Source: Candidatus Peribacteria bacterium RIFCSPHIGHO2_02_FULL_49_16
GTDB taxonomy: Bacteria > Patescibacteriota > Gracilibacteria > Peribacterales > Peribacteraceae
Reading direction: 5' to 3'
Assembly (NCBI GenBank): GCA_001788955.1
Contig: MFXT01000019.1
Location: forward strand, 6,331-70,330
Length of the DNA: 64,000 nt
Shown: positions 4,843 to 62,916 of the stretch, piece by piece
Layout: each line of letters opens with the position of its first letter
Numbering within the stretch: the stretch's first letter is position 1
Position numbers and translations under genes: made by a program
The notes under the pieces: generated by a model
Database searches by the model: none
Seen by the model: the letters and a program-made list of their open reading frames with translations, nothing else
Told to the model about the DNA's origin: nothing

Positions 4843-5471
4843 GGAGAACGGAGAGAAGCAATAGCCTCTGCACGATCGGGTGCGGAAAAAATGAAACTTC
4901 CGGAGACAAGATTATTCGCCCCCGCCTCAATGCACTTTTTTGCCGTTCGATCATCAATACCGCCATCCATTTGTATCATCAGATTCGGATAATGTTCCCG
5001 AATCGCACGCACTTTTTCGAGCACGTTCACCATAAACTCCTGACCGCCGAAGCCCGGATGCACAGACATCATCAATACAAGATCAACATCTTCGATTGTT
5101 TTGGCGATTGCATCGATCGGCGTCTCCGGATTCATGGCAATACCGGCAGTCGCTCCGCCATCGCGGATAGCAGCCACCAGCGCCGACCGTTCTTCCGTAT
5201 CCGTCACTTCGGCATGGAACGTGATATTTTTGACTTTCAGAGACAAAAAATCCTCAATGCGATCTTCCGGATTTTCCACCATCAGGTGAATATCGAGTGG
5301 AAGTTTTGTTTTGAGATGACGAAGAACCGGCGCACCGAAACTTAAATTCGGCACGAAATGTCCGTCCATCACGTCCACTTGCAGCCAATCAGCATACGAT
5401 TCGATCGTATCGACCTCGTCCTGGAGACGGGCTAAGTTGCAGGAGAGAATGGAGGGAGTGATCAGTGTCAT
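4839..5471 (-). CDS. rpe: Ribulose-phosphate 3-epimerase
   Basis: 210 aa with PSILSCNL, DVMDGHFVPNLSFG and MSVHPGFGGQ blocks. Confidence 0.95.
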   Translation of the reverse strand: MTLITPSILSCNLARLQDEVDTIESYADWLQVDVMDGHFVPNLSFGAPVLRHLKTKLPLDIHLMVENPEDRIEDFLSLKVKNITFHAEVTDTEERSALVAAIRDGGATAGIAMNPETPIDAIAKTIEDVDLVLMMSVHPGFGGQEFMVNVLEKVRAIREHYPNLMIQMDGGIDDRTAKKCIEAGANNLVSGSFIFSAPDRAEAIASLRSP

Positions 5472-5941
5472 ATGAATGGCTCAATTTCTCTTACCCGTCG
5501 TTCGTGCCGCCCACCTTCGAACTCCGTCTCCAAAAATATATCCACCATCTTCTTGGCTAATTTTTCCTCGACATACCTTCCTCCAAGACTCATGACATTC
5601 GCGTCATTGTGTGCGCGTGCAAGGCGGGCAATTTCCTCATTCCAACACACTGCCGCACGGATGCCTTTCATTTTATTGCCTACCATGGCTTCTCCGTTGC
5701 CGCTGCCGCCAACAATGATTCCGAACACCCCCTCCCCTCTATCCCCTCCCTTATGGAGGGGAGAAAAGGAAAGCACTTCTTTACATCCTTTGCGGATAAT
5801 CGGCGGGTAATCATCGTCTTGCTGAACATGTGGAGAAACATCTGTCACATCAATTTTTTTTGATGAAAGATACGCTTTGATTTTTTCCTTCAGCGCAAAA
5901 CCTGCATGATCGGCGGCAAGAATGACGCGTTCCACTTTCAT
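5468..5941 (-). CDS. rpiB: Ribose-5-phosphate isomerase B carrying an in-frame mini-element insertion
   Basis: RpiB/LacAB pattern: ILAADHAGFALKE, GIIVGGSGNGEAM, NDANVMSLGGR. The start is set at ATG 5941 (MKVERV) because the longer ORF to 5995 would overlap tpiA. The segment SPLHKGGDRGEGV is extra. Confidence 0.9.
   Translation of the reverse strand: MKVERVILAADHAGFALKEKIKAYLSSKKIDVTDVSPHVQQDDDYPPIIRKGCKEVLSFSPLHKGGDRGEGVFGIIVGGSGNGEAMVGNKMKGIRAAVCWNEEIARLARAHNDANVMSLGGRYVEEKLAKKMVDIFLETEFEGGRHERRVREIEPFI
5728..5764 (-). repeat. G/C-rich hairpin and G-tract mini-element, copy A (inside rpiB, sense orientation)
   Basis: The sense-strand sequence is TCTCCCCTCCATAAGGGAGGGGATAGAGGGGAGGGGG. Close matches occur at 29979-30016 and 62503-62539. 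Confidence 0.85.
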
Positions 5942-13868: not shown

Positions 13869-14008
13869 TGTGTTGTGTATGTCTATTTTTTACAAAATGA
13901 TCATCAGGCTCATTGTTTATTTATTTTATGTTATTATAGGTATAAGTATAGCAAATTTGACGTTCAGGCTCAATAACGTAAAACGTGCTAAAACGTATGA
14001 ATTCTTAC

Positions 14009-15091
14009 TTATTTTTTCACCCATTGTCCCCCTCCTGTATTTTTTACGACACCAGCAATTTCTAACATCGTCAATGTCGCATTCACATCACTCGATGGAA
14101 GCACGGTACGAAGAGCGATGTTGTCAACAGGCTGGGGCATGGTTGTAAGAACTTCCAAAATCTTCTCTTCCAGATGGCTCTTTGCTTCATAAGAAGATAC
14201 CGGCGTCTCTGGCGATGAGACGATGCCGATTTCCCGAAAGACATCCTGCGGTGAGCAGACGAGCTTTGCCTGACCACTCCCAATCAGCGCATGGCAACCC
14301 GCATAATTCTCATCAAAAATCTGCCCCGGCACCGCAAATACCTCGCGCCCATATTCAAGTGCGAATTCGGCTGTCAGAATCGCGCCGCTCTTTTCGGGCG
14401 CTTCGAGAACAACGGTTCCAAGCGAGAGCCCGGCGATGATGCGATTACGCGCAGGGAAAGTGTGCCTGCCCGGCGTAGTATCCAACGGAAATTCTGTCAG
14501 GAGCACGCCGCCGGTTGCTACAATTTGCTTGGCAAGCCGCCTGTTGTTACTTGGGAAAATCTGTGCAAGTCCATGACCGAGCACGGCAACCGTTTTCCCG
14601 CCTGTATGCACAGTCTCTTGTGCAACGACGGCATCAATGCCCTGCGCAAGTCCGCTCACTGTCACCATCCCCGAATGCACACTTGCTCTTGCAAATTCCT
14701 CTGCGACGCGTTTTCCATAGGAAGATATCTTTCGTGTACCCACAAGGCCGATGCAGGGTTGATCAAGAACCGCAAGATCGCCGTAGTAATAGAGAAAAAG
14801 AGGCGGATCGGGAAGATCGTGAAGCATTGTTGGATACGCATGATCTTCAATGGAGAGGAATGATAATTTGCGCTTCTCCAGCTCTGCCTGATACTGCTCG
14901 ACAGAAAATTCCTCCGAGCGATGAAGAGTCTTTACTATCGTCTCCTCCTTGCAACCGAGGTTTTGGAGCATCTCTTCATCAAGATGTTCCAAAGCCGTAT
15001 CCAGATTCCCATACACCTTTTTTAGAGCATCATAACGCTTTTTTGTGAGACAATGAAGCCAAGACCACGTGAGGGAAACATGCAAATGCAT
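14009..15091 (-). CDS. dprA: DNA-processing protein DprA (Smf)
   Basis: Rossmann-like DprA core: GLAQGIDAVVAQ, VAVLGHGL, FPARNRIIAGLS, EAPEKSGAILTAEFALEYGREVFAVPG. The start is moved to ATG 15091 because the upstream extension runs through a heptamer repeat. Confidence 0.9.
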   Translation of the reverse strand: MHLHVSLTWSWLHCLTKKRYDALKKVYGNLDTALEHLDEEMLQNLGCKEETIVKTLHRSEEFSVEQYQAELEKRKLSFLSIEDHAYPTMLHDLPDPPLFLYYYGDLAVLDQPCIGLVGTRKISSYGKRVAEEFARASVHSGMVTVSGLAQGIDAVVAQETVHTGGKTVAVLGHGLAQIFPSNNRRLAKQIVATGGVLLTEFPLDTTPGRHTFPARNRIIAGLSLGTVVLEAPEKSGAILTAEFALEYGREVFAVPGQIFDENYAGCHALIGSGQAKLVCSPQDVFREIGIVSSPETPVSSYEAKSHLEEKILEVLTTMPQPVDNIALRTVLPSSDVNATLTMLEIAGVVKNTGGGQWVKK

Positions 15092-15108
15092 AAAATTGAG
15101 AAAAGAAA

Positions 15109-15140
15109 TTGATACTTGATACTTGATACTTGATAATTGA
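15109..15140. repeat. 7-bp tandem repeat (TTGATAC x3, then TTGATAA, then TTGA)
   Basis: Read directly from the sequence. It lies in the intergenic region between the dprA start and tRNA-Thr. Confidence 0.9.
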
Positions 15141-15165
15141 CGAAGCGTTAGACACCTATTGTAAT
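15137..15165 (+). promoter_or_regulatory. Candidate sigma70-type promoter for tRNA-Thr (TTGACG, 17-nt spacer, TGTAAT)
   Basis: The hexamers and the 17-nt spacer were counted by eye. The -10 element ends about 21 nt upstream of the tRNA 5' end. Confidence 0.3.
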
Positions 15166-15186
15166 TGATCACTTATCAATGAGTAA

Positions 15187-15261
15187 GCCGCCTTAGCTCA
15201 GTGGTAGAGCAACGGTATCGTAAACCGTGGGTCCGGGGTTCAAGTCCCCGAGGCGGCTCCA
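15187..15261 (+). tRNA. tRNA-Thr (anticodon CGT), CCA encoded
   Basis: Manual cloverleaf fold. Acceptor stem is GCCGCCT/AGGCGGC, anticodon stem ACGGT/ACCGT with loop ATCGTAA, and T-arm CGGGG-TTCAAGT-CCCCG. Confidence 0.95.
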
Positions 15262-15369
15262 ACCTTCACAGAGCGAAAGTGGGCTCTCCAATTTGACTAT
15301 TAAAACCTACTGTTGTATAATTTCAATATTGAGATTCCTGTTCTTTCCTATTCAGAAAAAGGAGGTGGG

Positions 15370-15555
15370 ATGATGGAGGATGTGATAAAATTGCTCTTTG
15401 TATTGGGCATTGGCCTGATGACCTTTGGGATGTATAGCGGCATTCAAACGGCTGCCACCCATCAACTGTGGCCATGGGTTCCATTCGTCTTAGGGGCGCT
15501 CATCCTGCTCATCGTCTTCGCACTAAGCGAAGACAAAAGCAAACCACGGTACTAG
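15370..15555 (+). CDS. Small two-TM membrane protein (hypothetical)
   Basis: ATG is preceded by AAAGGAGGTGGG. There are two hydrophobic helices, and an intrinsic terminator follows the gene. Confidence 0.5.
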   Translation: MMEDVIKLLFVLGIGLMTFGMYSGIQTAATHQLWPWVPFVLGALILLIVFALSEDKSKPRY

Positions 15556-15578
15556 CCCGTGCAGAAAATCTCACAGAA

Positions 15579-15608
15579 CCCATCGCCACGGCGATGGGTT
15601 TCTTCTTT
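15579..15608 (+). terminator. Rho-independent terminator
   Basis: Hairpin CCCATCGC-CACG-GCGATGGG followed by TTTCTTCTTT. It sits between convergent genes. Confidence 0.7.
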
Positions 15609-15612
15609 CCAT

Positions 15613-17478
15613 TTACTCGCCTAATTGTTTCAGTGCGCTCTGTGCACTGGAGTTTTTTGGGTCGATGGCAAGAACTGTCTCAAATTCGACAATTGCGTCT
15701 GCCAAACGTCCGCTATTGGCATAGAGGATACCGAGATTGATGCGCGCGGCGATGTGCGTGGGGAGGAGCCGGATCGCGCGTTCGTATGCGGCAATGGCAT
15801 CTTCGATTTTCCCCTGTTCCTGCAGAGCGACACCGAGATTATACGATGCATGAAAAAAATACGGATTCGCGTCGAGTGCGTTTCGATAATGCCCAATCGC
15901 TTCATCAAACTTTCCCTCCTGCATCGCGAGCGCTCCGAGGTTCACGTGCGCTTCTTCCAAATCTGAACGCAAAGCAATGGCTTTTTCATATGCTTCTCGT
16001 GCCGCATCTGTCTGTCCCAATTCCACGTATACCAACCCGAGCCCAACATGCACTTCGGCATTATCGGGATTCTGGCGTAGCGCCTCGTCATACATTTTCT
16101 GTGCATCAGTGTAACGATGCATGCGACGATAGGTGGCACCAAGATTGGCAAAAATTTTACTATGCGGTCGAATGGCGATCGCCTTCTCATATTCTGCGAT
16201 CGCCTTCTCATGCTCTCCCCGCAAGCGATAGACGTTGCCCATATTATTATGAGCCACATGCGATAGTTCGCCATACTGCTTCAAAACATTTTGCAAAAGC
16301 ACCTCCGTATCTCCCCACAGAAGCGACTGTGCATGCGCGCGTACTCCAAGAATTCCCAAAAGGACAACGCACGCAGTGACTGCAAATTTTCTATGACGAT
16401 GAGCAATAACCCCAATAATGAATATCAATCCGATCGATGGAATATAGGCATACCGATCCGAAGCAAAATAGCGATCCATATCACCGCCGCGTGCGATATT
16501 GAGAAACGTAGGAAGCAGGGTAATAAGGAAGAAAAAATAGGAGAAGGCAAGTACGCATTGATATTTTTTAAGAAAGAGGACAAGGAATGTGATCGCCATG
16601 ACAATCACCAGCGGAATAAAAAATTCCGGTGATGCAATAGACGCATCAGTGTAGGGATAGAGTACGGAGAACTCCGTGGGCCAAAAGAATTTTTCAAGAT
16701 AAAAGAGCGTGCTCTTCGGGGCAACGATTGCTTTCTCAAAGTACGTTGCGAAAGAGAACGCTTCACGCTTTCCGAAAAAACCGACAATGCCGAACATGAC
16801 AGACAGCAAGAAATAGGGAGTAAGACGGCTGATCGTCACAAAGGACGATGCACGGAGACGTCGATGATACAGAAGCCATTCAATCAGAAGAAGAATCACC
16901 GGCAGCATGATGATGGAAACTTTTGCCAGTAACCCCAAGGCAAAGGCAAAGATGCTGAAGGAATACAAGAGCTTCCCGCTTCCCGCTTGCCCATTCTCTC
17001 TTTCTCTCCATTGGAGATAACTGCACACACTCAACAGAAAGAAGAAACTCGATAGCACGTCTTTACGTGCGCTCGCCCACGCAACCGCTTCTGTGTGGAG
17101 AGGATGAACAAGGAAGAGAAGACCGACAAAGAGAGAAAGATGAACATTTCTCAATAACAGAAAAAGAAACATCATCACCAGCAGCGCATTCATCGTATGC
17201 AACACCAGATTCGTCAAGTGAAATCCGAAGGGATTCATTCCCCACAGAAGATGGTCGATTTGATAACTCATCAGAGTCGCTGGTATATATAATTCGGGAT
17301 CAAATGTCTTGAATGCTTCCTTGAGTGACCATAGAGAAATCTCTTTCACAATAGGGTTCCCCACAATCAAATAATGGTCATCCCAGAGAACGAAATCATT
17401 GTTCAACGCAGAGCCATAGATGAGAAAACTGATCAGGAAAAAACCGCCGAAGAGCGCCACTGCCATTTTCATACGCAT
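15613..17478 (-). CDS. TMTC-like membrane protein: polytopic GT-C-type N-domain plus C-terminal TPR repeats
   Basis: 621 aa with about 10 TM helices. The N-terminus NDFVLWDDHYLIVGNPIV is typical of TMTC/DUF1736-type proteins. The C-terminal third consists of canonical 34-aa TPR repeats. Confidence 0.8.
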   Translation of the reverse strand: MRMKMAVALFGGFFLISFLIYGSALNNDFVLWDDHYLIVGNPIVKEISLWSLKEAFKTFDPELYIPATLMSYQIDHLLWGMNPFGFHLTNLVLHTMNALLVMMFLFLLLRNVHLSLFVGLLFLVHPLHTEAVAWASARKDVLSSFFFLLSVCSYLQWRERENGQAGSGKLLYSFSIFAFALGLLAKVSIIMLPVILLLIEWLLYHRRLRASSFVTISRLTPYFLLSVMFGIVGFFGKREAFSFATYFEKAIVAPKSTLFYLEKFFWPTEFSVLYPYTDASIASPEFFIPLVIVMAITFLVLFLKKYQCVLAFSYFFFLITLLPTFLNIARGGDMDRYFASDRYAYIPSIGLIFIIGVIAHRHRKFAVTACVVLLGILGVRAHAQSLLWGDTEVLLQNVLKQYGELSHVAHNNMGNVYRLRGEHEKAIAEYEKAIAIRPHSKIFANLGATYRRMHRYTDAQKMYDEALRQNPDNAEVHVGLGLVYVELGQTDAAREAYEKAIALRSDLEEAHVNLGALAMQEGKFDEAIGHYRNALDANPYFFHASYNLGVALQEQGKIEDAIAAYERAIRLLPTHIAARINLGILYANSGRLADAIVEFETVLAIDPKNSSAQSALKQLGE

Positions 17479-17501
17479 ACGAATACCCTACACCCTACTA
17501 C

Positions 17502-18851
17502 CTATCCTGCCTTCATTACCCATCGAATCGGCGTCCCTTCAAATCCAAAGGTCAGACGCATTTGATTTTCGAGATAACGCAGGTGACTCAATTGGATTTT
17601 TTTCGAATTCTTTGTAAATAGAACAAAAGTAGGCGGAATATCACTTGCCTGTGTGATGTGTTTTATGGAGGAAAGTTGTGCGACTGATTGTCCATGAGCA
17701 ACGCCTTCATACCAGTTGTGCAGTTCTTTCGTTGGAATGCGGCGTCGGCGATTTTCATTGATCAGTGCGATGAGGTCAAAAATTTTGAGAAGCCCTTCGC
17801 GCGTCTTGGCAGAACAGGGAAGAATGGGAATAAACCGGCAGAAAGAAAGTGCATGCTGCACTTTCTGCAATACGATTTGACGGTGTTTCCCTTCAAAAAT
17901 GTCAATTTTATTCAAGAGCAAGAGAAATCCTTTTCCTTCCTGAAGCGCCATCTGCGCGATCCGTTTATCCTGACGGTTGATATCTTCCGTTGCATCAAGA
18001 ACAAGAACGGCAATGTCTGATTGCTCTAAAGCTTTGATGCTTCGCAAATACGCGTAATTTTCAATTTCTTCCACGATGTGCGATTTTCTCCGAATGCCCG
18101 CCGTGTCAATGAAGAGATATTCCTTATCGTCATGCTTGATGAATGTATCCGACGCATCGCGCGTCGTGCCGGGAGTATCGGAAACAATTCGCCCGCCTAA
18201 TTCCCGCTGCTTTTCGGTCATAAAGGCATTGATCAGTGAACTTTTTCCCACGTTCGGTTTCCCGATAATCGCCACTCGAGGGGTGTTTTCCTCTTTCTGG
18301 TTTTCGCTTTTCTCCTGTGTATCAAAATGTAATTTCTTCAACTCATGCACAATTTGTTCCTGTAATTGCTCAATGCCCATTTTGTTCATGGCACTGGTGG
18401 CGATGACATTGTCCGTAATACCGAATGCATAGGCTTGAGAAAAGGCTTCCTCCGCGCGTTCAAGATTATCGCATTTACTCAAAACGAGAATGACGGGAAC
18501 ATGCGTGCGTCTCTGTTTACGCAGCACATCAACGACGGCATAATCACTCGATGTCAGATCTTCCGTCGCATCTACGGTGAAGATGATGAGATCCGCGTGT
18601 TGGATGGCGAGATGGGCCTGTTTTTGCACATTGCTTTCCATGTCGCTATCTTGCGATCCGCCGCCGATGCCTCCGGTATCGAGAAGGAGGTAATTCATAT
18701 CCGGTGTCTCTATGCGATGCGCGATCGTATCGCGCGTCGTGCCGGGAATATCACTGATAATTGCATGACGTTTGCGAATCAGTCGATTAAAAAGACTCGA
18801 TTTTCCACTATTCGGCCGGCCGATGATGGCGACGATTGGCAGCTTGGGCAT
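17502..18851 (-). CDS. der: Ribosome-associated GTPase Der (EngA)
   Basis: Two tandem GTPase domains (GRPNSGKSSLFN and GKPNVGKSSLIN; DTGG and DTAG; SKCD and NKID) plus a KH-like C-terminus. The start is set at ATG 18851 to avoid overlapping the upstream ORF. Confidence 0.95.
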   Translation of the reverse strand: MPKLPIVAIIGRPNSGKSSLFNRLIRKRHAIISDIPGTTRDTIAHRIETPDMNYLLLDTGGIGGGSQDSDMESNVQKQAHLAIQHADLIIFTVDATEDLTSSDYAVVDVLRKQRRTHVPVILVLSKCDNLERAEEAFSQAYAFGITDNVIATSAMNKMGIEQLQEQIVHELKKLHFDTQEKSENQKEENTPRVAIIGKPNVGKSSLINAFMTEKQRELGGRIVSDTPGTTRDASDTFIKHDDKEYLFIDTAGIRRKSHIVEEIENYAYLRSIKALEQSDIAVLVLDATEDINRQDKRIAQMALQEGKGFLLLLNKIDIFEGKHRQIVLQKVQHALSFCRFIPILPCSAKTREGLLKIFDLIALINENRRRRIPTKELHNWYEGVAHGQSVAQLSSIKHITQASDIPPTFVLFTKNSKKIQLSHLRYLENQMRLTFGFEGTPIRWVMKAG

Positions 18852-18867
18852 AAGTCGAGATGAGCGA

Positions 18868-19584
18868 TTAGTCTTGTTCTTGTAATGATTCATGCCATTG
18901 CTCGATGCATTCTTCCAGTCTCTTATGGCGGGGAAAATGCGCACCGTTGTTACAGGAAACACGCATGAGAAGACTGCATGCGAGCATTTCTGCGGCATTC
19001 TCTCCTTGCGAAGCACAATCCTTTATTGTAGTAATCTCACTTTCATTATCCGGTTCAAAGAGAGCATAACCGAGAATTTTTTCTTCACATTTCACCAATG
19101 TTCCGACAATCTCCCTTTGATGAAACAGTTCCTCTATTTGCCCATGAGTCGCGGCGCACTCACCGAAAACCATGGCCTGCAGATGTGGTATGAACGATTC
19201 TTGTGCAGAGATATCGAGTGAATGGAAAATCTCTTGATTCATCAGGAGATGATCAGATTCTTCATTGCCTGGAAAGGGTGCGACGTAGTCGGCGCAACGA
19301 AAAAGAGTTTCGAGAGAGGATCGAAAATGCGCAAGGTACTCCACTCGCATATCGCGGTCTTTTACCGATTCGATCAGATCATGGAATGCCAATTCACATT
19401 GTCTTTGCAGACAAAGAAGATCCATGTTGGAAATGGTGTTTTTCAGTGTGTCCCAGAGACCGCGGTCCTGTTGAATGGTGCGGATTCCCCGGTACTCATT
19501 TTGTACATATTTCACGTCGTCAAGAACCAGCCGAATGTTGTCGTGAAGCAGTCCCATAACAGATAAAGTGTAAGACGAAGTCAA
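18868..19584 (-). CDS. Hypothetical protein
   Basis: 238-aa ORF with no motif that I recognise. It is tightly packed upstream of der on the same strand. Confidence 0.55.
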   Translation of the reverse strand: MTSSYTLSVMGLLHDNIRLVLDDVKYVQNEYRGIRTIQQDRGLWDTLKNTISNMDLLCLQRQCELAFHDLIESVKDRDMRVEYLAHFRSSLETLFRCADYVAPFPGNEESDHLLMNQEIFHSLDISAQESFIPHLQAMVFGECAATHGQIEELFHQREIVGTLVKCEEKILGYALFEPDNESEITTIKDCASQGENAAEMLACSLLMRVSCNNGAHFPRHKRLEECIEQWHESLQEQD

Positions 19585-19630
19585 GAAAATACAATAAACT
19601 CTTCTTATCGTACCGCCGAATCGCTAGTAT

Positions 19631-22093
19631 TTGGCCATGACGGAGCAGTATCAACCATCGGTTGTTGAGCGAAAATGGCAGAAAAAGTGGGAGGAGGCGA
19701 ATCTTTATGCAATCGAACTTGAAAAGGCTAAAAATCCATACTACTGTCTTGTGATGTTTCCGTACCCCAGTGGTGCGCGTTTGCACGTTGGGCACTGGTT
19801 TCAGTATGGTCCGACAGACAGTTTTGCGCGTTTTAAGAAAATGCAAGGAAATGATGTTTTCTTACCCGTAGGGTTTGATGCATTCGGACTCCCTGCGGAA
19901 AATTATGCGATCAAGACCGGTACGCCTCCGACAAAGTCCACTGCGGAAAATGTGCAGAATATGATGAAACAGTTTAAACGGATGGGGTGCATGTATGATT
20001 GGAGCAAGACTCTGAATACGTCAGAGCCGGAGTATTATCGCTGGACGCAATGGCTTTTTTTGCAGATGTACCAAAAAAATCTTGCTTATAAAAAAGAAGC
20101 GAAAGTGAACTTTTGTCCAAGTTGCCAAACGGTTCTTGCCAATGAACAATGCCAGGATGGCATGTGTGAACGATGTGGTACAGAAGTCGAGCAAAAGCCG
20201 ATGCAACAGTGGTTCTGGAAAATTACCGATTACGCACAGAGATTATTAGACGGCTTGGATACTATGGCATGGCCGGAGAAAACAAAGTTGATGCAGAGAA
20301 ATTGGATCGGAAAATCGGAAGGAGCAACGATAAAATTTGAAATCAAAAATCAGAAATCAGAAACACATAAAAAATTTGAAGTGAACAAGACAAAAACCTT
20401 CGTGGAAGTGTTTACCACGCGGCCTGATACGCTTTTTGGAGCGACGTATCTCGTGCTGGCGCCGGAACATCCGCTTGTCGATGAGGTCATGCCAAAGGAA
20501 CATGAAGGCGCTGTGCATGCTTACAGAGAAGAAGTAAAAAAGAAATCGGAAATGGAGCGCACGGAACTCAATAAAACGAAAACAGGAATCTGGATAGGTG
20601 CATATGCGATCAATCCGGCGACAGAGGAGGAAATTCCCATATGGATTGCCGATTATGTCCTCATAAATTATGGAACAGGCGCGGTCATGGCGGTTCCCGC
20701 GCATGATGAACGGGACTACGAATTTGCAAGCGTCTACGCTCTTACTGTGCGAGAAGTTGTAAAAGGAGGAAACATCAAGGATGCTGCATTTACAGAAGAG
20801 GGAAGCGCAATCAATTCTGATTTTCTTAATGGACTGTCAACGTCGGAAGCACAAAAACGCATTGTTGCTTGGCTTGAAGATGAAGAAATCGGCAGACAGA
20901 AAATCCATTACCGCTTGCGTGACTGGCTTATCTCACGTCAACGATACTGGGGCGCTCCGATCCCGATCGTCTATGATCCACAAGGCAATGCGCATCCTGT
21001 TTCCGAGGAGCACCTTCCATGGTTGCTCCCGACCGACGTGGAATGGAAACCCACAGGAGAATCTCCACTGAAAGCGTCGAAAGAATTCAAGAAACGTACC
21101 GAGAAGATCTTTGGCAAAGGGTGGACGCCGGAATGCGATACGATGGATACATTCGTATGTTCGTCTTTTTATTATCTACGATTCCTGACGAACGCACATT
21201 CTCAATCCAAAAGAGTGATCGATCCGGCTCTTGAAAAGAAGTGGATGCCGGTTGACATGTATATCGGCGGCCCGGAGCACGCGTGCATGCATCTGATCTA
21301 TGCGCGGTTCGTGATGATGGCATTGTATGATTTTGGAATTGTTTCCCATGAGGAGCCATTTCAAAAACTTGTGCATCAGGGACTGATCACGAATCAAGGT
21401 GCGAAAATGAGTAAAAGTAAAGGAAATATCGTTGATCCTGATCCTCTTGTGGAGAAGTATGGCAGCGATATTTTTCGTATGTATCTCATGTTTATGGGGC
21501 CATACGGCGATGGAGGAGACTTTTCAGATACGGGGATTCGTGGAGTGGAAAGATTTATGCAGAGAGTGTGGAAAATTTTTAAGAAAGCCAAAGAAGCTCC
21601 GGCGTCATTGCAAGGAGCCGCAAAAAGCAAAAAGGTGCAAATAAAACTTCATTCAACGATCAAGAAAGTAACCGAGGATATGGAAAAATTGCATTTCAAT
21701 ACGGCGATCAGTGCACTGATGGAATTACTTCATGTTCTGGAAAAAGAAGAAAGTATTTCAAAGGAGACACTGAAGACGTTTGCAATTCTGCTTGCGCCTA
21801 TCGCTCCTCATCTTGCCGAGGAGATTTGGGAAACGCAGAGCGCACAACATTCATTCGTTTTCCAACAACCTTGGCCATCATTCGATTCCACCATTGTCAT
21901 CACAGATACCATGACGATTGTCGTGCAGGTGAATGGAAAAATGCGGGCGAGCATCGAGGTTGATTCGGGTGCAAAAAAGGCAGATATTCTCGCAAAAGCA
22001 AAAGAGCAACCGAATGTGCAGAAATGGTTGGAAGGAAAAAATATGAAGAAAACAGTCTATGTACAAGGAAGATTAATTAATTTTGTTCTGTAG
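19631..22093 (+). CDS. leuS: Leucine--tRNA ligase
   Basis: 820 aa with the HIGH-type motif (PSGARLHVGH), KMSKSKGN and the conserved LeuRS editing and zinc regions. Confidence 0.97.
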   Translation: MAMTEQYQPSVVERKWQKKWEEANLYAIELEKAKNPYYCLVMFPYPSGARLHVGHWFQYGPTDSFARFKKMQGNDVFLPVGFDAFGLPAENYAIKTGTPPTKSTAENVQNMMKQFKRMGCMYDWSKTLNTSEPEYYRWTQWLFLQMYQKNLAYKKEAKVNFCPSCQTVLANEQCQDGMCERCGTEVEQKPMQQWFWKITDYAQRLLDGLDTMAWPEKTKLMQRNWIGKSEGATIKFEIKNQKSETHKKFEVNKTKTFVEVFTTRPDTLFGATYLVLAPEHPLVDEVMPKEHEGAVHAYREEVKKKSEMERTELNKTKTGIWIGAYAINPATEEEIPIWIADYVLINYGTGAVMAVPAHDERDYEFASVYALTVREVVKGGNIKDAAFTEEGSAINSDFLNGLSTSEAQKRIVAWLEDEEIGRQKIHYRLRDWLISRQRYWGAPIPIVYDPQGNAHPVSEEHLPWLLPTDVEWKPTGESPLKASKEFKKRTEKIFGKGWTPECDTMDTFVCSSFYYLRFLTNAHSQSKRVIDPALEKKWMPVDMYIGGPEHACMHLIYARFVMMALYDFGIVSHEEPFQKLVHQGLITNQGAKMSKSKGNIVDPDPLVEKYGSDIFRMYLMFMGPYGDGGDFSDTGIRGVERFMQRVWKIFKKAKEAPASLQGAAKSKKVQIKLHSTIKKVTEDMEKLHFNTAISALMELLHVLEKEESISKETLKTFAILLAPIAPHLAEEIWETQSAQHSFVFQQPWPSFDSTIVITDTMTIVVQVNGKMRASIEVDSGAKKADILAKAKEQPNVQKWLEGKNMKKTVYVQGRLINFVL

Positions 22094-28332: not shown

Positions 28333-31323
28333 ATGATACCGCACATTCCAGAGAGAAAGTCATCAAAAATGGCTTTTGCGGAAAGTTACGAACAATTAAA
28401 TATCGATCAAAAAGAAGCAGTCGATACGATTGAGGGTCCGGTGATGGTCATCGCGGGGCCGGGGACGGGAAAGACGCAAGTTGTTGCCTTGCGTGTTGCA
28501 AATATCCTCAAAAAAACACACATGCGTCCGAGTAATATTCTTTGTCTCACCTTTTCCACGAGCGGTGCAACTGCCATGCGCGATCGGCTGAAGAAGTATA
28601 TCGGTTCGGATGCGTATGGAGTAACAGTGAACACCATTCATGGATTTTGCAATGATCTCATTGCGCAGCATTCATTGCTCTTTGAAGAATGGTCTGCATT
28701 GGAACATGTAAGTGACATCGAGCGATATCGGATCATCAATACCATTATCAATACAATGCTTCCTGATATTGCACTCGTGAATCGCAAAAATCCGTATCGA
28801 AAGAGCGGAAACATTTTGCATCGCATCAGTCAGATCAAACGTGAAGGCATTGAACTGGAGAAGTTGCGACAGATTGCGGATTTCTACGAACAAGAGCTGT
28901 CACAAAAAAGTAAGGAAAGGACGAAGGCGCATGCGAGAAATATTCGCCAGGCACGCAAGTTCAAAGAGTTTGTCACGGTCTTTCAAAAATATCAGGAAGA
29001 GCTGGAGCGATCACAGCGCTATGACTACGAGGATATGATCCTCTATGTCATTCGTGCATTGGAGGAAGAAGAATGGCTGCTTGCCGGTCTTCAGGAGCGC
29101 TATCACTACATTCTCATTGACGAATTTCAGGATACGAATGGCGCGCAAAATCGCATTGTGGAATTACTTACCACATATCCTCACCTTGATCACGAACCCA
29201 ATCTCTGTGTTGTCGGTGATGATGATCAGGCGATTTATCGCTTTCAGGGGGCTAACCTGCAAAATATTCTCGCATTCCATGCACGTTTTCCCACGTCGAA
29301 AAAAGTCGTATTGAACATGAGTTACCGCTGTCTCCAGCCGATCCTCGATGCTGCCGGCTCGCTTATTGAGCACAATACGGAGCGTCTCGTTGGAAAAATC
29401 CCCGGTCTTCAAAAAAACCTCATTTCCGCTTCACCCGCCCCCTGCCCCCTTCCTCCTACAACCACCTTCTCCCCCTCCGATGCTCTTGAACCGTGGCTCA
29501 TTGCCGAATTGGTGCAAGAGCGAATACACATGGGAGTGTCACCATCCGAAATAGCGATTCTTACTCAAACGAATGCGGAACTTTTGCCGATCTATGAAGT
29601 GCTTCGTGTGCAAAATATTCCCGTTGATATGCGCGGAAAGCTTGATCTTCTTGCACAACCGCAGATCAAGCAGCTGATCTGCATCTTGAGAGCAATTGCA
29701 AAACCGAATGAGTGCGGGCTTCTTGCCGCAGCGCTTGCCTGTGAATGTTTTGATTGTCATCCGGCGGATCTCGGCAAACTTTTTGCGCATAAAAAAGAGA
29801 AGAATATTTCATTAATGAATGTCCTTCTCTCTCTTGAAGGAGGGGAGTGGAAATTGCAAATCAATCAATATGATGCGATGATTTCTGCTCGCGATATTCT
29901 TTTGGATATTCATTATAAACTGTCGTCTCGCACGATCGTCGACACTCTGGAACATGTCCTGAAAGAATGTTCCTTAATCTTCCCCTCCCTTGAGGGAGGG
30001 GATCGAGGGGAGGGGGATACAATTGATCCTTTAACTTTTGCCCCCCTTCAGTCGTTCTTTAACCGCATCAAGTATCGTGCCTATGAGCAGCCAACCTATG
30101 ACATCAACACACTTATCGAAGATCTCGAGTACTACGAAAATCCGGAGTACGGCGATGTCCGCCTCACCTATGAAATTCCGCATCTGATCGAAGATGGCGT
30201 ACAACTCATCACCGCACACCAAAGCAAGGGATTGGAGTTTCATACCGTGATCCTTACGAATATGCGTGAAGGACAGTGGGATGGTCGTCGCCATCCGGAA
30301 TCTTTCTCCATTCCTGAAGATTTGCTCTTTGGATGGGAAAAGGATCAGAAGACATATGAAAAGAATCAGGACGAGCGACGTGTTGCTTACGTTGCCATGA
30401 CGCGTGCAAAAGAGGAACTTCTCTTTGTCGTCAGTAAAACGCAGACGCGCGGCGAAAAGAAGAAAGACGTGTCTCCATCGCGATTTATTGCAGAGGCGAA
30501 TGTGATAAGCGAAGAAGAGCGTACGCCAAAAAATGCGGAACAGTCGTCAACGTTATTGCATACTCCGGAGAGACATATTGATGAAGAGTTTGCCGCGTTC
30601 TTACGTGCCCGGCTGAAAAAATTTCATTTGTCCGTTACGGCGCTTAACCACTTCCTCGACGATCCGCAGAAATTTTTGGAGATTGATCTTCTGCAAATGC
30701 CGAAGAGTAAGACACCAAGCCTTGTATACGGAAATGCCGTGCACAACGCTTTGCAAGCGTGGGGGATGCAAAAATGTAAAATGCACAATGGAGAATTCAC
30801 CATGAATGAATTTCTGGATACATTCAGAAAATATCTCAATGAACGTGAAGTCTTAACAAAAAAAGATCGAGAGAATTTGATCCATCATGGAGAAGAGAAT
30901 CTGCCGCGGTATTACGAAGAAGTTCTTGCAGTTTCACATCCGCACATCCACAGCGTTGAGCGGGGGATTTCCACTCATCTTCCAATGTCCATTCCCATCA
31001 AAGGCCTCATCGACCGTATTGATCTTATTCATCCGTCATCAAGTGATGCTGTGATCATCGACTATAAAACCGGCATCCCAAAAACCGAAAAACAAATTCG
31101 TGACGGTGACTACTTCCGTCAACTCGTTTTCTATGCACTCCTTATCGAACATGCTGATACTGCTCTGCAGCCGAATGTCTTTATTCTCGATTTTATCGGA
31201 GAAGGGGATTATGCCCCCATTCAGCGAAAATTTACAGTTTCCGAAGCGGAAAAAGAAGAAGTGCGCACGATGATTCGGGCAGTATGGGATAAAGTACAGA
31301 ATCTGGATTTTACGCCAGTGTGA
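28333..31323 (+). CDS. UvrD/PcrA-family ATP-dependent DNA helicase with a C-terminal PD-(D/E)XK nuclease domain
   Basis: Motifs AGPGTGKT, ILIDEFQDTNGAQ, VVGDDDQAIYRFQGA, TAHQSKGLEFHTV, VAYVAMTRAKEEL. The C-terminus has GLIDRIDLI...IIDYKTG...QLVFYALL (RecB/Cas4-type nuclease). The start could instead be ATG 28369. Confidence 0.93.
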   Translation: MIPHIPERKSSKMAFAESYEQLNIDQKEAVDTIEGPVMVIAGPGTGKTQVVALRVANILKKTHMRPSNILCLTFSTSGATAMRDRLKKYIGSDAYGVTVNTIHGFCNDLIAQHSLLFEEWSALEHVSDIERYRIINTIINTMLPDIALVNRKNPYRKSGNILHRISQIKREGIELEKLRQIADFYEQELSQKSKERTKAHARNIRQARKFKEFVTVFQKYQEELERSQRYDYEDMILYVIRALEEEEWLLAGLQERYHYILIDEFQDTNGAQNRIVELLTTYPHLDHEPNLCVVGDDDQAIYRFQGANLQNILAFHARFPTSKKVVLNMSYRCLQPILDAAGSLIEHNTERLVGKIPGLQKNLISASPAPCPLPPTTTFSPSDALEPWLIAELVQERIHMGVSPSEIAILTQTNAELLPIYEVLRVQNIPVDMRGKLDLLAQPQIKQLICILRAIAKPNECGLLAAALACECFDCHPADLGKLFAHKKEKNISLMNVLLSLEGGEWKLQINQYDAMISARDILLDIHYKLSSRTIVDTLEHVLKECSLIFPSLEGGDRGEGDTIDPLTFAPLQSFFNRIKYRAYEQPTYDINTLIEDLEYYENPEYGDVRLTYEIPHLIEDGVQLITAHQSKGLEFHTVILTNMREGQWDGRRHPESFSIPEDLLFGWEKDQKTYEKNQDERRVAYVAMTRAKEELLFVVSKTQTRGEKKKDVSPSRFIAEANVISEEERTPKNAEQSSTLLHTPERHIDEEFAAFLRARLKKFHLSVTALNHFLDDPQKFLEIDLLQMPKSKTPSLVYGNAVHNALQAWGMQKCKMHNGEFTMNEFLDTFRKYLNEREVLTKKDRENLIHHGEENLPRYYEEVLAVSHPHIHSVERGISTHLPMSIPIKGLIDRIDLIHPSSSDAVIIDYKTGIPKTEKQIRDGDYFRQLVFYALLIEHADTALQPNVFILDFIGEGDYAPIQRKFTVSEAEKEEVRTMIRAVWDKVQNLDFTPV
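29825..29847 (+). repeat. Possible decayed or partial copy of the mini-element (TTCTCTCTCTTGAAGGAGGGGAG)
   Basis: About 18 of 23 positions match the 5' part of copy B. It is read in the same frame (SLEGGEW versus SLEGGDRGEG). The C-rich arm is degraded and the third arm is absent. Confidence 0.4.
29979..30016 (+). repeat. G/C-rich hairpin and G-tract mini-element, copy B (inside the helicase gene, sense orientation)
   Basis: Sequence CTTCCCCTCCCTTGAGGGAGGGGATCGAGGGGAGGGGG. It contains a perfect 8-bp hairpin CCCCTCCC-TTGA-GGGAGGGG followed by a second G-rich arm. Confidence 0.85.
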
Positions 31324-44253: not shown

Positions 44254-44898
44254 ATGTATCATTCTCCTTCTATGCGTCATTGGCAGAACATCGTTTTTAT
44301 TTTCATTATTCTTTTCATCATTGCCTTTGGATTGTGGCAATCCCAATGGGATATCCGCATATTTGAAGAGAGCATGGAAATGCACCCGTTTCTTTCTGCA
44401 ATGGCATATGTCCTTTTTCTCATTGGGTCCATTGTCCTTTTACCCTTCTCTTCTTTGCCGCTCCTGCCACTGGCTGCGCGCATTTTTGGTGTGTGGATGA
44501 CGGGAATTTTAAGCATTATCGGGTGGTGGATAGGGTGTCTTATCGCGTTTCAGATTGCTCGCATGGGACGAAGAGTTCTGGAGAAATTCGTCTCTTTCAA
44601 AGCAGTCGATCACATCGAAAAACGCATTCCGCCGGACATCGGTTTTCTGGGAATCGTCGTTTTGCGCATGTTACTTCCAACGGATATGACGAGTTATGTC
44701 TTGGGACTGCTCAAGAATCTGCGCTTTTCGATATATGCCACCGCTTCGCTTCTTGGCATCATTCCGTTTGCTTTTGTCTGGAGTTATGCGGGAGGGGAGA
44801 TTGGAAAGGGGGATTTCTTCAGTGGAGCCGTTATTCTTCTTATACTATGTATCACAGTAATCTTCTTAAGAAAACTTCAACATAAAAGACGTATTTAG
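44254..44898 (+). CDS. TVP38/TMEM64 (DedA-related) family membrane protein
   Basis: 5-6 TM helices with LLPFSSLPLLPLAARIFG...IGCLIAFQIARMGRR. The start is moved to ATG 44254 to avoid overlapping the vanW-like gene. Confidence 0.7.
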   Translation: MYHSPSMRHWQNIVFIFIILFIIAFGLWQSQWDIRIFEESMEMHPFLSAMAYVLFLIGSIVLLPFSSLPLLPLAARIFGVWMTGILSIIGWWIGCLIAFQIARMGRRVLEKFVSFKAVDHIEKRIPPDIGFLGIVVLRMLLPTDMTSYVLGLLKNLRFSIYATASLLGIIPFAFVWSYAGGEIGKGDFFSGAVILLILCITVIFLRKLQHKRRI

Positions 44899-60196: not shown

Positions 60197-61564
60197 ATGG
60201 AAAATACAAGAATTACATATGGCAAAGAATTCCGGTTATCGCATCGACTGGAAGTCGTGCGATGTGACAAGTACACGTTGATCTATCTTCCGCAGGAAAA
60301 AGTATGGCGAAAACAGGATGCCGATGACCAGAGAAAGTTTTTGATGGATGAACAGGAAAAACAGGAATTTCTGGATATTGCAAAAGAACCCGGAGTCAAA
60401 GTGTATTACCTGCCGGGGAAAACAGTAACCGAAGAGGAGTTCTTTGGCGAAAATGGTGACAATGGAAAGGAAAAGAAGAAAATGTTCCCGCGATTTTTTA
60501 TCGGATTGGATGGATTTGTAAACTGCTCCACGCATTTTCAACCTCATGATGGAAAAAAAGGACCGCGTGCAAATTTTAACCATCATCATGGCATTCGGGA
60601 GAGTACAAAAAGCACATGCAAGCAGGTTCATGCCGCGCTTGTACCCGGTGGCCCCATCGATAAACACTTCAGGACGAATGATGACCAGTTCATTGTCAAC
60701 CTTGCTCTGAATCATCTTGACGAGGATGGCGAAGCGAGCATTTGGGAATTCGTGTATCGCGAGAAGATTCATGAACTCGACGTGTCCGGCGAGCGTCGTG
60801 CCTATCGCAGTCGTGTTATTCAACTTCTTCTCGATGACATCGGCGATATTGATGAAGAAGGAGGAGTATCTCCGCTTCCTCTCATTGAGACAGAGGAGAT
60901 TAAAGCACTCTTTTGTCATGTGCAGGAAGTAAAAAGTACATCCATAGCATGTACATATACGGAACGATTGAATAATATTTTTTACAACATCAATCGTGCG
61001 ATTGAGAAGACTCTGCGCGGTGAAGAACGCGATCGCGAAAATGTAGAAGAGAGTTTTCGTTTTTTGGGACGAGGCAAAGGTTTTACTGTTGTTACAGATA
61101 CGCAAAAGGAGGCACGTAACGCTTTACGAGATATGGGTGTGGAAGCAGCCGTATTACACAAAGGACAACTGGAAAATGGAAGTCACGTTTTTACCATTCA
61201 ACGGTTTGATATGGGTAGCCCTTTCCCTTTGGAAAAAATCATCGACATGCTGAATCGTATGGAACGTGTTCCAAAACACATGCGTCACAAACCCCCGCAA
61301 GAACTCATTACATACATTCAAAAACCGGACGCCGTTCTTGTTCCAGAAAAAGAAGAGGATCAATGGGGAGGTGACAACAAAGTGAGCGGCTCACCTCGTG
61401 AGAACGGAACCTGGATGGATCCAAACGCCATACGAGAAAGTATTACTTGTTATCTTGCGCAATTGGAATCTGAACAAAAAAAAGAAGAAATTTCCAATCA
61501 AAACACGGTGGAGGATGTAGAAAGCGGCAAAGCGCTTCTTGATGATGACACAGGGGATGAATAG
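60197..61564 (+). CDS. Hypothetical protein (455 aa, orphan)
   Basis: A long ORF 15 nt downstream of prfA on the same strand. It is acidic and I recognise no motif. The opposite-strand 289-aa ORF looks like low-complexity shadow. Confidence 0.55.
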   Translation: MENTRITYGKEFRLSHRLEVVRCDKYTLIYLPQEKVWRKQDADDQRKFLMDEQEKQEFLDIAKEPGVKVYYLPGKTVTEEEFFGENGDNGKEKKKMFPRFFIGLDGFVNCSTHFQPHDGKKGPRANFNHHHGIRESTKSTCKQVHAALVPGGPIDKHFRTNDDQFIVNLALNHLDEDGEASIWEFVYREKIHELDVSGERRAYRSRVIQLLLDDIGDIDEEGGVSPLPLIETEEIKALFCHVQEVKSTSIACTYTERLNNIFYNINRAIEKTLRGEERDRENVEESFRFLGRGKGFTVVTDTQKEARNALRDMGVEAAVLHKGQLENGSHVFTIQRFDMGSPFPLEKIIDMLNRMERVPKHMRHKPPQELITYIQKPDAVLVPEKEEDQWGGDNKVSGSPRENGTWMDPNAIRESITCYLAQLESEQKKEEISNQNTVEDVESGKALLDDDTGDE

Positions 61565-62916
61565 CGCAAATCTTTCATCATGTCTTTTCGTTTCTGAATC
61601 ATCTCCTCTTTACCAATGTCTCTGCGAAATCGCACGGGGCCTTGCACTTGTTCACAGAGCTTTTGTGCAATAGCTTCAGCTTGGGCGATCGAATCACCGA
61701 TACCGACGATGCCGGCTGTACGGGAGGAACCGAGTATGAGGTTGCCATTGAGGTCTTCAGAAATGTCGCCGTAGAATAGGTTGTAGCGATCAGGAGCTGA
61801 ATGAGAGAATGGAAATTCTACAATATCCCCCTTCTGATCTTTAGAAACAGGATAACTTTCCGGAACGATATATTTGCATACGGTGGCTTTGCGAGAAAAG
61901 TGCACCAGATCTTCGGTGAGTTCTCCGGTGACAATGCCCAAACAGATGGCCGCAAAATCTGATGTGAGAAGAGGGAGAATATTAAGTGCTTCAGGATCTC
62001 CGAACCGTGCGTTGTATTCAATGAGCCGGATGCCGTCGCGAACGGCGATAAATCCTCCATAAAGAATACCTTTGTAGGGTATGCCGAATTCTCGAAGAAG
62101 CGCATGTGCAACCAACTGATTGATTTCCTGCGCTCTTTTCAAATCGTTCTCTGTTAAAAACGGCAAGGAGTGATTCGTATCGCTGTATGTCCCCATGCCA
62201 CCGGTATTCGGTCCCGTGTCATTTTCGTATGCGCGTTTGTGATCCTGTACGACCGGCATATGAACGACGTCTGGTCCGCTGACAAACGAGAGAAGGCTGA
62301 ATTCCACACCGATGAGTTTTTCTTCAAGCACAACACGCCCGCATTCCTCGATGCATTCCAGAGCATACGATACGCCATGATCAATCGTTTCCAAATGTTC
62401 ACCGGAGAGTTTTACTCCCTTTCCTCCTTTTAAGGCGTCATACTTGACCACGTATTCTCCGTGCAGTTCATTCTCAATATACGAGCGGATTTCTTGTTCA
62501 AGCCCCCTCCCCCTACCCCCTCCCTCAAGGGAGGGGAGAACACGAAACTTCGGCGATGCATCAATGTCATGCTTCTTGAGCAGATTCCGGGTGAAACCTT
62601 TGCTGGACTCGATTTTTGCCAATTCTTTTTTTGGGGCAACGGAAGCGATGCCGATTGTTTCCAATGCATCCGCAAGACCGCCGCCGATTGCATCATCGGG
62701 AGCGATGAAAGCAAAATCCGGCTGTGTTTTTTTTGCAATGGCGCAGACCTGTTCAAAATTCATGATATTCATGACATGCTGCTCGCGTGCAAGCGCACGA
62801 ATGCCGGGATTTGCCGTAGGACAGAGTGAAATGATTTCCATGTTCTGCGGACTTCTGGCAAACGCATCCGCAATCGCATGTCCCCGCGCCGAGGAAGAAA
62901 CTAAAAGAACGATCAT
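61498..62916 (-). CDS. purD: Phosphoribosylamine--glycine ligase carrying an in-frame mini-element insertion
   Basis: ATP-grasp PurD blocks: VVKYDALKGGKGVKLS, GPNTGGMGTYS, IEYNARFGDPE. The segment PSLEGGGRGRG is extra. A tail of about 40 aa lies beyond the usual C-terminus. The gene overlaps purF by 4 nt. Confidence 0.93.
   Translation of the reverse strand: MIVLLVSSSARGHAIADAFARSPQNMEIISLCPTANPGIRALAREQHVMNIMNFEQVCAIAKKTQPDFAFIAPDDAIGGGLADALETIGIASVAPKKELAKIESSKGFTRNLLKKHDIDASPKFRVLPSLEGGGRGRGLEQEIRSYIENELHGEYVVKYDALKGGKGVKLSGEHLETIDHGVSYALECIEECGRVVLEEKLIGVEFSLLSFVSGPDVVHMPVVQDHKRAYENDTGPNTGGMGTYSDTNHSLPFLTENDLKRAQEINQLVAHALLREFGIPYKGILYGGFIAVRDGIRLIEYNARFGDPEALNILPLLTSDFAAICLGIVTGELTEDLVHFSRKATVCKYIVPESYPVSKDQKGDIVEFPFSHSAPDRYNLFYGDISEDLNGNLILGSSRTAGIVGIGDSIAQAEAIAQKLCEQVQGPVRFRRDIGKEEMIQKRKDMMKDLRYSSPVSSSRSALPLSTSSTVF
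62503..62539 (-). repeat. G/C-rich hairpin and G-tract mini-element, copy C (inside purD, sense orientation)
   Basis: Sense-strand sequence TCTCCCCTCCCTTGAGGGAGGGGGTAGGGGGAGGGGG. It has the same hairpin CCCCTCCC-TTGA-GGGAGGGG as copy B. Confidence 0.85.

Follow-up and report, generated by a model that had tools for sequence, protein, structure and literature searches.

In-frame triplex-motif repeats in three genes of a Peribacteria genome, and inverted repeats of the same architecture beside DUF559 endonuclease genes

A short G/C-rich repeat of Escherichia coli has been named BoxC, then PIT element and then TMECO (PMC4666352). The TMECO form has the consensus CCCTCNCCC N3-6 GGGNGAGGG N3 GGGNGAGGG and numbers 3,610 copies in 262 proteobacterial genomes; in strain K-12 all 23 copies are intergenic, with inverted pairs at five loci, and the 2015 study found no link of the E. 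coli repeats to mobile elements (PMC4666352). Oligonucleotides of TMECO sequence form a stable triplex in vitro by circular dichroism and nuclear magnetic resonance (NMR), the latter favouring the triplex over a G-quadruplex (PMC4666352). How BoxC/PIT/TM repeats originate and spread has been an open question since their description. Here we report that this known and widespread repeat class, described only between genes, occurs in frame in essential genes of the reduced genome of a member of the candidate phyla radiation (CPR). The DNA analysed, termed the window, is a 64-kb stretch of a Peribacteria metagenome-assembled genome (MAG) from an uncultured groundwater bacterium; three near-identical 33-36 nt G/C-rich elements lie in frame in its rpiB, UvrD-type helicase and purD genes. 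Inverted repeats of the same architecture stand beside DUF559 endonuclease genes in distant phyla, and the window elements are probably solo copies of a selfish triplex-motif repeat, tolerated in protein loops and likely derived from such DUF559-flanking units.

The initial annotation had reported a repeated, palindrome-containing mini-element inserted in frame, 37 nt long in rpiB, with near-identical copies in the helicase gene and purD; all three are present. The 37-mer occurs once in the window, as an exact match on the minus strand at 5728-5764 within the rpiB open reading frame (ORF). This copy, c1, is also reported by the triplex-motif finder, and reads on its own strand TCT, a pyrimidine arm CCCCTCC (5761-5755), a loop ATAA, a purine arm GGGAGGGG (5750-5743), a linker ATAGA and a second purine arm GGGGAGGGGG (5737-5728), encoding the peptide SPLHKGGDRGEG. 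The same finder places c2 on the plus strand of the helicase gene at 29980-30016 (arms 29982-30016), with pyrimidine arm CCCCTCCC (29982-29989), loop TTGA, purine arm GGGAGGGG (29994-30001), linker ATCGA and last arm GGGGAGGGGG (30007-30016), encoding FPSLEGGDRGEG, and places c3 on the minus strand of purD at 62503-62539, where TCT is followed by pyrimidine arm CCCCTCCC (62536-62529), loop TTGA, purine arm GGGAGGGG (62524-62517), linker GTAG and last arm GGGGAGGGGG, encoding LPSLEGGGRGRG. An example of a peptide that spans an insert is VLSFSPLHKGGDRGEGVFGIIVGGSGNGEAMVGNK.

The layout common to the three copies is CCCCTCC(C), a loop, GGGAGGGG, a linker and GGGGAGGG(GG). All three form 7-8 Watson-Crick pairs without mismatch, with a first loop of 4-6 nt and a second loop, the linker, of 4-5 nt. 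Their arms are identical and their loops nearly so (CTTGA in both c2 and c3; ATAGA in c1 against ATCGA in c2); a shorter C-arm in c1 and a shorter linker in c3 displace that C-arm and the last arm of c3, respectively, by 1 nt. The G-arm/linker/G-arm pattern has three matches in the window against none in 100 dinucleotide shuffles, and the strict triplex-motif finder reports three motifs against none in 20 shuffles. A fourth copy had been suspected at 29826-29845 ('LSLEGGEW'), which proves to be an ancestral protein motif, orthologues having LELERGEWRLQ there. A further GGGAGGGG at 44790 is a chance match within the ORF of another protein.

The same genome holds two more true copies, between genes about 4 kb to the left of the window, which are inverted and about 200 nt apart (locus L001, 19729-19760 on the plus strand and 19960-19991 on the minus strand). 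Three of the five known copies in this genome accordingly lie inside genes in frame, whereas those of K-12 are intergenic in 23 of 23 cases. A tRNA-like gene can be made out by eye near the intergenic pair, at about L001 19530-19625. Rfam identifies no family on the window elements or on eight related loci, reporting tRNAs only.

The element is a class II purine-motif intrastrand triplex motif, that is, a member of the BoxC/PIT/TMECO class. Class II was defined by the order of a pyrimidine arm, a purine arm and a mirrored purine arm (Y-R-RH), with stems of 6-15 nt and at most one mismatch and with loops of 1-6 nt (ITxF, Holder 2015, PMC4666352); c1, c2 and c3 all have this arm order, stems and loops within these limits, and the mirror arm. 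In each of them the second purine arm is a perfect mirror of the first (GGGAGGGG, then GGGGAGGG), so that G.G-C and A.A-T triplets are possible in antiparallel register. Four G3-G5 tracts stand on the sense strand (in c2 its G-rich half reads GGG A GGGG ATCGA GGGG A GGGGG), and, as a sequence pattern, all three copies fit the G-quadruplex consensus (four tracts of at least three G, loops of 1-7 nt). G-quadruplex prediction gave mixed results and is given no weight here. The G-quadruplex proposed initially is compatible with these tracts, but the mirroring of the first G-arm by the second is the signature of a triplex. The hairpin part alone has a predicted (ViennaRNA) energy of -8.8 to -9.9 kcal/mol as DNA and of -16 to -22 kcal/mol as RNA on the sense strand. 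Compared with dinucleotide shuffles of equal composition they are unremarkable (z -0.4 to -1.9), since the composition by itself forces pairing.

Like BoxC/PIT/TMECO, the window element is G/C-rich and 33-37 nt long, has the same arm order and is dispersed in multiple copies, either alone or as inverted pairs; the linker is often YTA or YTG, comparable to the TTA of TMECO type A. It differs in its arms (CCCCTCC(C)/GGGAGGGG, 7-8 nt, against CCCTCNCCC/GGGNGAGGG, 9 nt), in its second loop (4-5 nt against 3) and in its host, a Patescibacteria (CPR) genome. Judged by sequence, it falls outside TMECO/BoxC in the strict sense and represents another sequence family of the same architecture. The earlier view that it belongs to no described family is not borne out: the layout is the published one of BoxC, PIT and TMECO (PMC4666352), and the window's own pattern occurs at no fewer than 116 loci in many phyla.

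All three host genes are housekeeping-type genes whose products could be aligned with orthologues. rpiB (5468-5941, minus strand) encodes a Glu-type RpiB of 157 residues (PF02502) from an ATG at 5941, and an identical RpiB is encoded on contig MFXO01000015.1 of GCA_001787485.1. The insert comprises residues 58-68, between a helix (47-57) and a strand (73-78). It corresponds to a 10-residue gap in the Thermotoga structure 1o1x and to an 11-residue (33-nt) gap in 18 of 18 aligned orthologues from Peribacteria and Peregrinibacteria; it is present in no RpiB of the PDB, in keeping with the initial remark that familiar RpiB proteins have no such segment, and elsewhere only in a 99%-identical sequence. 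An AlphaFold2 model of the whole protein has a mean pLDDT of 89.6, falling to 55 at residues 61-70, the insert block. As modelled, the insert is a low-confidence loop that joins the helix to the strand preceding the GGSGNGE active-site loop.

The gene at 28333-31323 (plus strand) encodes the host of c2, a UvrD/PcrA-type helicase of 996 residues with a C-terminal PD-(D/E)XK domain. Twelve residues (36 nt) are missing at the c2 site in its closest orthologue (P0242, locus L123; 71% identity), and the insertion site is a linker whose length varies among orthologues. purD (61498-62916, minus strand; 472 residues) receives c3 in a loop of variable length among 120 homologues, and the segment corresponds to a 10-residue gap in PDB entry 2yrw; the same peptide is found in the PurD of a relative (P0122, 75% identity; GCA_002772605.1). 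The rpiB and helicase segments are, on these orthologue alignments, lineage-specific insertions of 11-12 codons. For purD the case is weaker, given its variable-length loop and the copy in a second species.

The purD copy has a history of its own. GCA_002772605.1 carries the identical element at the same site, and 12 contigs encode an identical PurD. The two purD genes are only 72% identical as DNA, and 47% identical at third-codon positions of conserved residues, but c3 lies within 42 consecutive identical nt, a stretch longer than any other in the gene (the second longest has 21 nt); in 60-nt windows identity peaks at 0.95 over the element, with 0.80-0.82 in the flanks. The rpiB of GCA_002772605.1 (L122) has no element, and neither has the closest helicase orthologue, L123, recovered in one metagenome sample together with a purD contig of GCA_002772605.1's own lineage. 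The presence of the purD copy in a relative that lacks the other two inserts implies that this copy is older or has been exchanged between lineages, and its conservation at every nucleotide in two species implies that the DNA or RNA sequence is constrained or was recently exchanged. This leaves room for a role at the level of the nucleic acid, or for recent exchange, in the case of purD.

Each copy leaves five of its six frames open, as the initial annotation stated, although the stop in the closed frame is TGA, TAA or TAG and not TGA only. The G-rich strand is the sense strand in 3/3 window copies, and the middle G-arm is read GGA GGG G in each. Such uniformity was thought hard to reconcile with random insertion. 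It is real in the window, yet with three copies it has a chance of about 1/25 among five open frames, and it does not extend to the class. Different repeats with this architecture occupy the same loop in two other Peribacteria helicases (P0277, 'PTPFSPPPMGEGMGVGE', L124 2220-2275; P0245, L125 2480-2540), in sense orientation but in frames other than those of the window copies; the G-rich strand is sense in all five Peribacteria in-gene copies. A further helicase, P0265, has an insert in a second loop ('PHPPLESATGGRARRGSAQGRGEG').

A scan for the hairpin core in metagenome contigs, in which in-gene status was judged by ORF length at loci with a GC fraction of at most 0.53, gave in-frame copies in three proteins confirmed by Pfam, antisense in a radical-SAM protein and sense in a DegT aminotransferase and an AAA_33 protein. 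ORF reading alone adds an aminopeptidase N-like ORF with two oppositely oriented copies and a DinG-like helicase ORF with an inverted pair in frame (loci L131, L134/L238, L133, L226 and L178, of which L131, L178 and L226 have antisense copies). In-frame survival of such repeats is therefore recurrent, and the uniform frame in the window is no general property of the class, copies elsewhere using other frames (L124, L125) or the antisense orientation. The scan of one genome per species that gave the 116 or more loci of the window's own pattern lists Bacteroidota, Alpha-, Beta- and Gammaproteobacteria, Chloroflexota, Planctomycetota, Peribacteria, Gracilibacteria and others; among the matches listed, low-GC genomes have their copies between genes, often as inverted pairs 15-25 nt apart. 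The hairpin core, CCCCTCCCTTTAGGGAGGGG, also occurs on metagenome contigs in conserved contexts that have no third G-arm, such as a long palindrome, GTGAAGCCT-core-AGGCTTCAC, and a frame GGAAT-core-AGGATGTCAA (L228, L147, L204, L243; L135, L198, L208, L229, L234, L235). These look like separate repeat families.

Genes of the DUF559 family, which has been classed with Vsr and with a homing-endonuclease family (PMC3424549), recur beside repeats of this architecture. In the window's own genome the spacer between the two intergenic copies holds a fragment of a DUF559 gene. Intact genes identified by Pfam (PF04480, E 1e-30 and 1e-35) lie between inverted repeats in two other Peribacteria loci, at L011 131-597 and L103 6381-6935: a repeat precedes the ATG by 27-42 nt, and an inverted one follows the stop codon after 3-7 nt. 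The latter, in L103, is very similar to c1. All nine DUF559 matches in 1.7 Mb of loci selected for the motif are within about 500 nt of a motif, most of them within 200 nt. Tandem arrangements are seen as well: three 36-nt copies precede the gene in L103, and in a Lewinellaceae MAG (L047 5790-7140) the gene is enclosed by two long triplex-motif arrays, whose periods are about 108 and about 99 nt.

A test blind to the repeats gives the same association. A DUF559 protein was searched against plasmid and chromid records, yielding 16 loci from diverse taxa (L249-L264). With the strict finder, 6 of the 16 loci have triplex motifs (12 in all) at most about 300 nt from the gene, against 0.01 in 100 dinucleotide shuffles, and a second finder setting reports 7 such loci (16 motifs). 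By eye, at least 12 of the 16 show, at each end of the gene and in inverted orientation, a C-arm/G-arm hairpin plus a further G-arm: those of Azospirillum, Neisseria, Methylobacterium, two Deinococcus, Pseudanabaena, Synechocystis, Photobacterium, Sphingomonas, Picosynechococcus, Sphingobium and Qipengyuania. Convergent as well as divergent arrangements are seen, and in unrelated phyla the repeats abut the DUF559 stop codon at 3-10 nt. Inverted repeats flank DUF559 genes in Peribacteria, Bacteroidota, Deinococcus, cyanobacteria and proteobacteria alike, and the association between the gene and the repeats is statistically well supported. No paper in the literature searched links DUF559 or ycjD to these repeats. 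Some of the units lie inside operons, between pntAA and pntAB in Sphingomonas, between paaD and paaZ in Deinococcus and in an hpa cluster (L258, L263, L254), as expected of an inserted selfish unit.

E. coli itself offers an instance. In K-12 (L248, NC_000913 1351204-1351760), TMECO #9 (1,351,204-1,351,239) lies 168 nt downstream of ycjD, which is annotated as a DUF559 domain-containing protein; with 18 TMECO loci in 4.64 Mb we estimate the chance of one lying so close to a given gene at about 0.3%. A duplicate of about 45 nt from the 3' end of ycjD (GAGACGGTGCTGGAGAATATTC...) stands between its stop codon and TMECO #9 (L248 2240-2420), which suggests that the repeat was once the site of a rearrangement. 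Of 5,426 complete E. coli genomes, 3,378 (62%) have ycjD. In phylogroups A, B1 and C, which have no eef operon there, it lies between fabI and sapF, and sequence type (ST) 11 is reported to carry eef in its place (PMC12817139). TMECO-like copies number from 1 to 29 per genome, with 17 in K-12, 25 in IAI1, 12 in O157:H7 and 1 in ST131.

The most likely mechanism behind the window copies is selfish spread, with survival only where an insert of 33-36 nt does no harm. The repeat would be selfish copy-and-paste DNA that landed in loops of RpiB, the UvrD-type helicase and PurD. When single-stranded it may fold in vivo as a hairpin, with the third arm lying in the major groove through G.G-C and A.A-T triplets. 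The inserts would have survived because they are 33-36 nt long, have no stop in the frame used and add a peptide of Gly, Pro and charged residues, as in PSLEGGDRGEG, which the AlphaFold2 model of RpiB renders as a low-confidence loop; presumably they are transcribed and translated with the host gene and are harmless to the host proteins. The likely parent would be a DUF559 gene, encoding a Vsr-like PD-(D/E)XK endonuclease, between two inverted repeats; inverted pairs without a gene and solo copies would be its non-autonomous derivatives, standing to it as REPs (repetitive extragenic palindromes) stand to RAYT genes, and the DUF559 protein may be what mobilises them. The broader proposition, that triplex-motif repeats (BoxC/PIT/TMECO and their relatives) are in general the non-autonomous partners of DUF559 genes, forming a REP/RAYT-like or homing-like system that crosses phyla and whose ends colonise coding sequence, is tentative, and we put it forward as a possibility somewhat short of an even chance.

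Several observations weigh against this account. The window contains neither a DUF559 gene nor a transposase gene, and comparison of filled with empty sites reveals no target-site duplication or common flank at the three copies. No triplex was detected in vivo for the E. coli elements, which also have no promoter or terminator activity (PMC4666352). Across E. coli strains the number of repeats is no simple function of ycjD: O157:H7, without the gene per PMC12817139, has 12 copies, and ST131 has 1; given such uneven numbers, the relation between the repeat and ycjD is suggestive at best. The highest proportion of DUF559 loci with flanking repeats is a count made by eye, and the collection scans, whether of one genome per species or of metagenomes, give lower bounds and not a census. 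Lastly, the perfect conservation of the purD copy could mean function and not tolerated junk.

This last point speaks for regarding the repeat as a selected cis-acting structure, a hairpin or a G-quadruplex or triplex switch in mRNA or DNA that tunes translation, mRNA stability or replication. In favour of such selection are the identity over 42 nt in purD genes that are 72% identical, the four G3-G5 tracts, the RNA hairpin on the sense strand and the sense orientation of the G-rich strand in every Peribacteria in-gene copy. But the functions of the three host genes are unrelated, rpiB and the helicase of the closest relative do without the element, hairpin energies are matched by shuffled sequence, in-gene copies in other taxa can also be antisense, and elsewhere the class is mostly intergenic and inactive as promoter or terminator in E. 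coli; we consider cis-acting selection unlikely. Cumulative GC skew has its minimum at about 16-18 kb in the window, where gene orientation turns from mostly minus to mostly plus, and the stretch 14000-20000 could be a replication origin; Pfam scans of the window's large ORFs identified no dnaA. Under that origin the G-rich strand would be leading for c1 and c2 and lagging for c3. It is likewise improbable that the repeat is of the REP type, or a miniature inverted-repeat transposable element (MITE), moved by a conventional transposase located elsewhere (a RAYT/IS200-like Y1 or a DDE enzyme), and that its adjacency to DUF559 is incidental, both occupying the same permissive intergenic spots. 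Its size and palindromic core are REP-like, the c3 linker GTAG is the REP head tetranucleotide, inverted pairs recall REPINs, and DUF559 genes often do sit in variable intergenic spots or inside operons. Against this, c1 and c2 have ATAG and ATCG in place of GTAG, no Y1 or DDE transposase is found in the window or in Pfam-annotated flanks, terminal inverted repeats and target-site duplications are missing from the solo copies, and repeats only 3-10 nt from DUF559 stop codons in unrelated phyla are hard to call incidental.

Two explanations dispense with a mobile repeat altogether. Template switching or slippage at a G/C-rich site could have made each copy locally, as template switching can generate mirror and inverted repeats, and the last arm in rpiB overlaps a purine-rich stretch (GAAGATG) that is present in the empty orthologue. 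Such an origin is very improbable for copies whose arms are identical and loops near-identical, and which have close matches in other genomes, the L103 flanking repeat among them. That the segments are glycine-rich protein loops, ancestral or convergent, rather than inserted DNA finds some encouragement in purD, where the loop varies in length in many orthologues and the peptide is kept in a second species. This explanation is largely refuted, and we give it hardly any weight, for the segment is absent from all other aligned RpiB and helicase orthologues, the three copies have nucleotide arms and loops in common, synonymous positions included, and the same sequence occurs between genes in the same genome.

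Taken alone, the in-frame finding is a modest addition with a parallel in the Rickettsia palindromic elements. Its value is raised by the conservation in purD, where the copy is common to species whose purD genes are so diverged, and by the adjacency to DUF559, with inverted repeats of this architecture beside such genes in distant phyla and beside ycjD in E. coli, where the link makes the question of spread testable by standard genetics and biochemistry. We know of no activity for stand-alone DUF559 proteins. If the proposed relation is true, it supplies a candidate mobilising enzyme for repeats that have been orphans since the 1990s, and a function for DUF559, E. coli YcjD included.

Among known systems, the formal likeness to Rickettsia palindromic elements drawn initially is a sound one: in both, a palindromic repeat is inserted in frame in unrelated housekeeping genes, at positions where the fold apparently tolerates the added peptide segment (PMC10969869). 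In-frame fusion by small repeats is known, these being the extreme case (PMC10969869). They are about 100-150 bp, AT-rich and confined to Rickettsia (Ogata et al. 2000, via PMC10969869), whereas the window element, about four times shorter at 33-36 nt and rich in G/C, has a mirror arm as its third and is one of a class that crosses phyla; by length and family these descriptions set it apart. REP/REPIN-RAYT systems (PMC2817692, PMC3116915) resemble it in consisting of short palindromes found as singlets and inverted doublets, and resemble the DUF559 units in having one small gene between two inverted copies along with many copies that have no gene. The flanked gene differs, being a DUF559 PD-(D/E)XK nuclease and not an HUH/Y1 transposase; neither Y1_Tnp (RAYT) nor a DDE transposase is found in the window or in Pfam-annotated flanks. 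The repeats also differ, since REPs are extragenic and the element described here has a homopurine mirror arm. As for the REP head GT[AG]G, the linker of c3 reads GTAG, and those of c1 and c2 read ATAG and ATCG. REP and REPIN papers that contain 'GGGAGGGG' concern unrelated Pseudomonas REPs. Nor do the solo copies show the hallmarks of MITEs, having no terminal inverted repeats, partner repeat or flanking direct repeat. Homing endonucleases of the Vsr fold (I-Bth0305I, PMC3424549) are, like DUF559, small Vsr-like PD-(D/E)XK nucleases, and act as selfish mobile genes; they reside in group I introns or inteins, and no flanking triplex-motif repeats have been described for them. By analogy, the I-Bth0305I family would be a precedent for a DUF559 protein driving the spread of its own locus.

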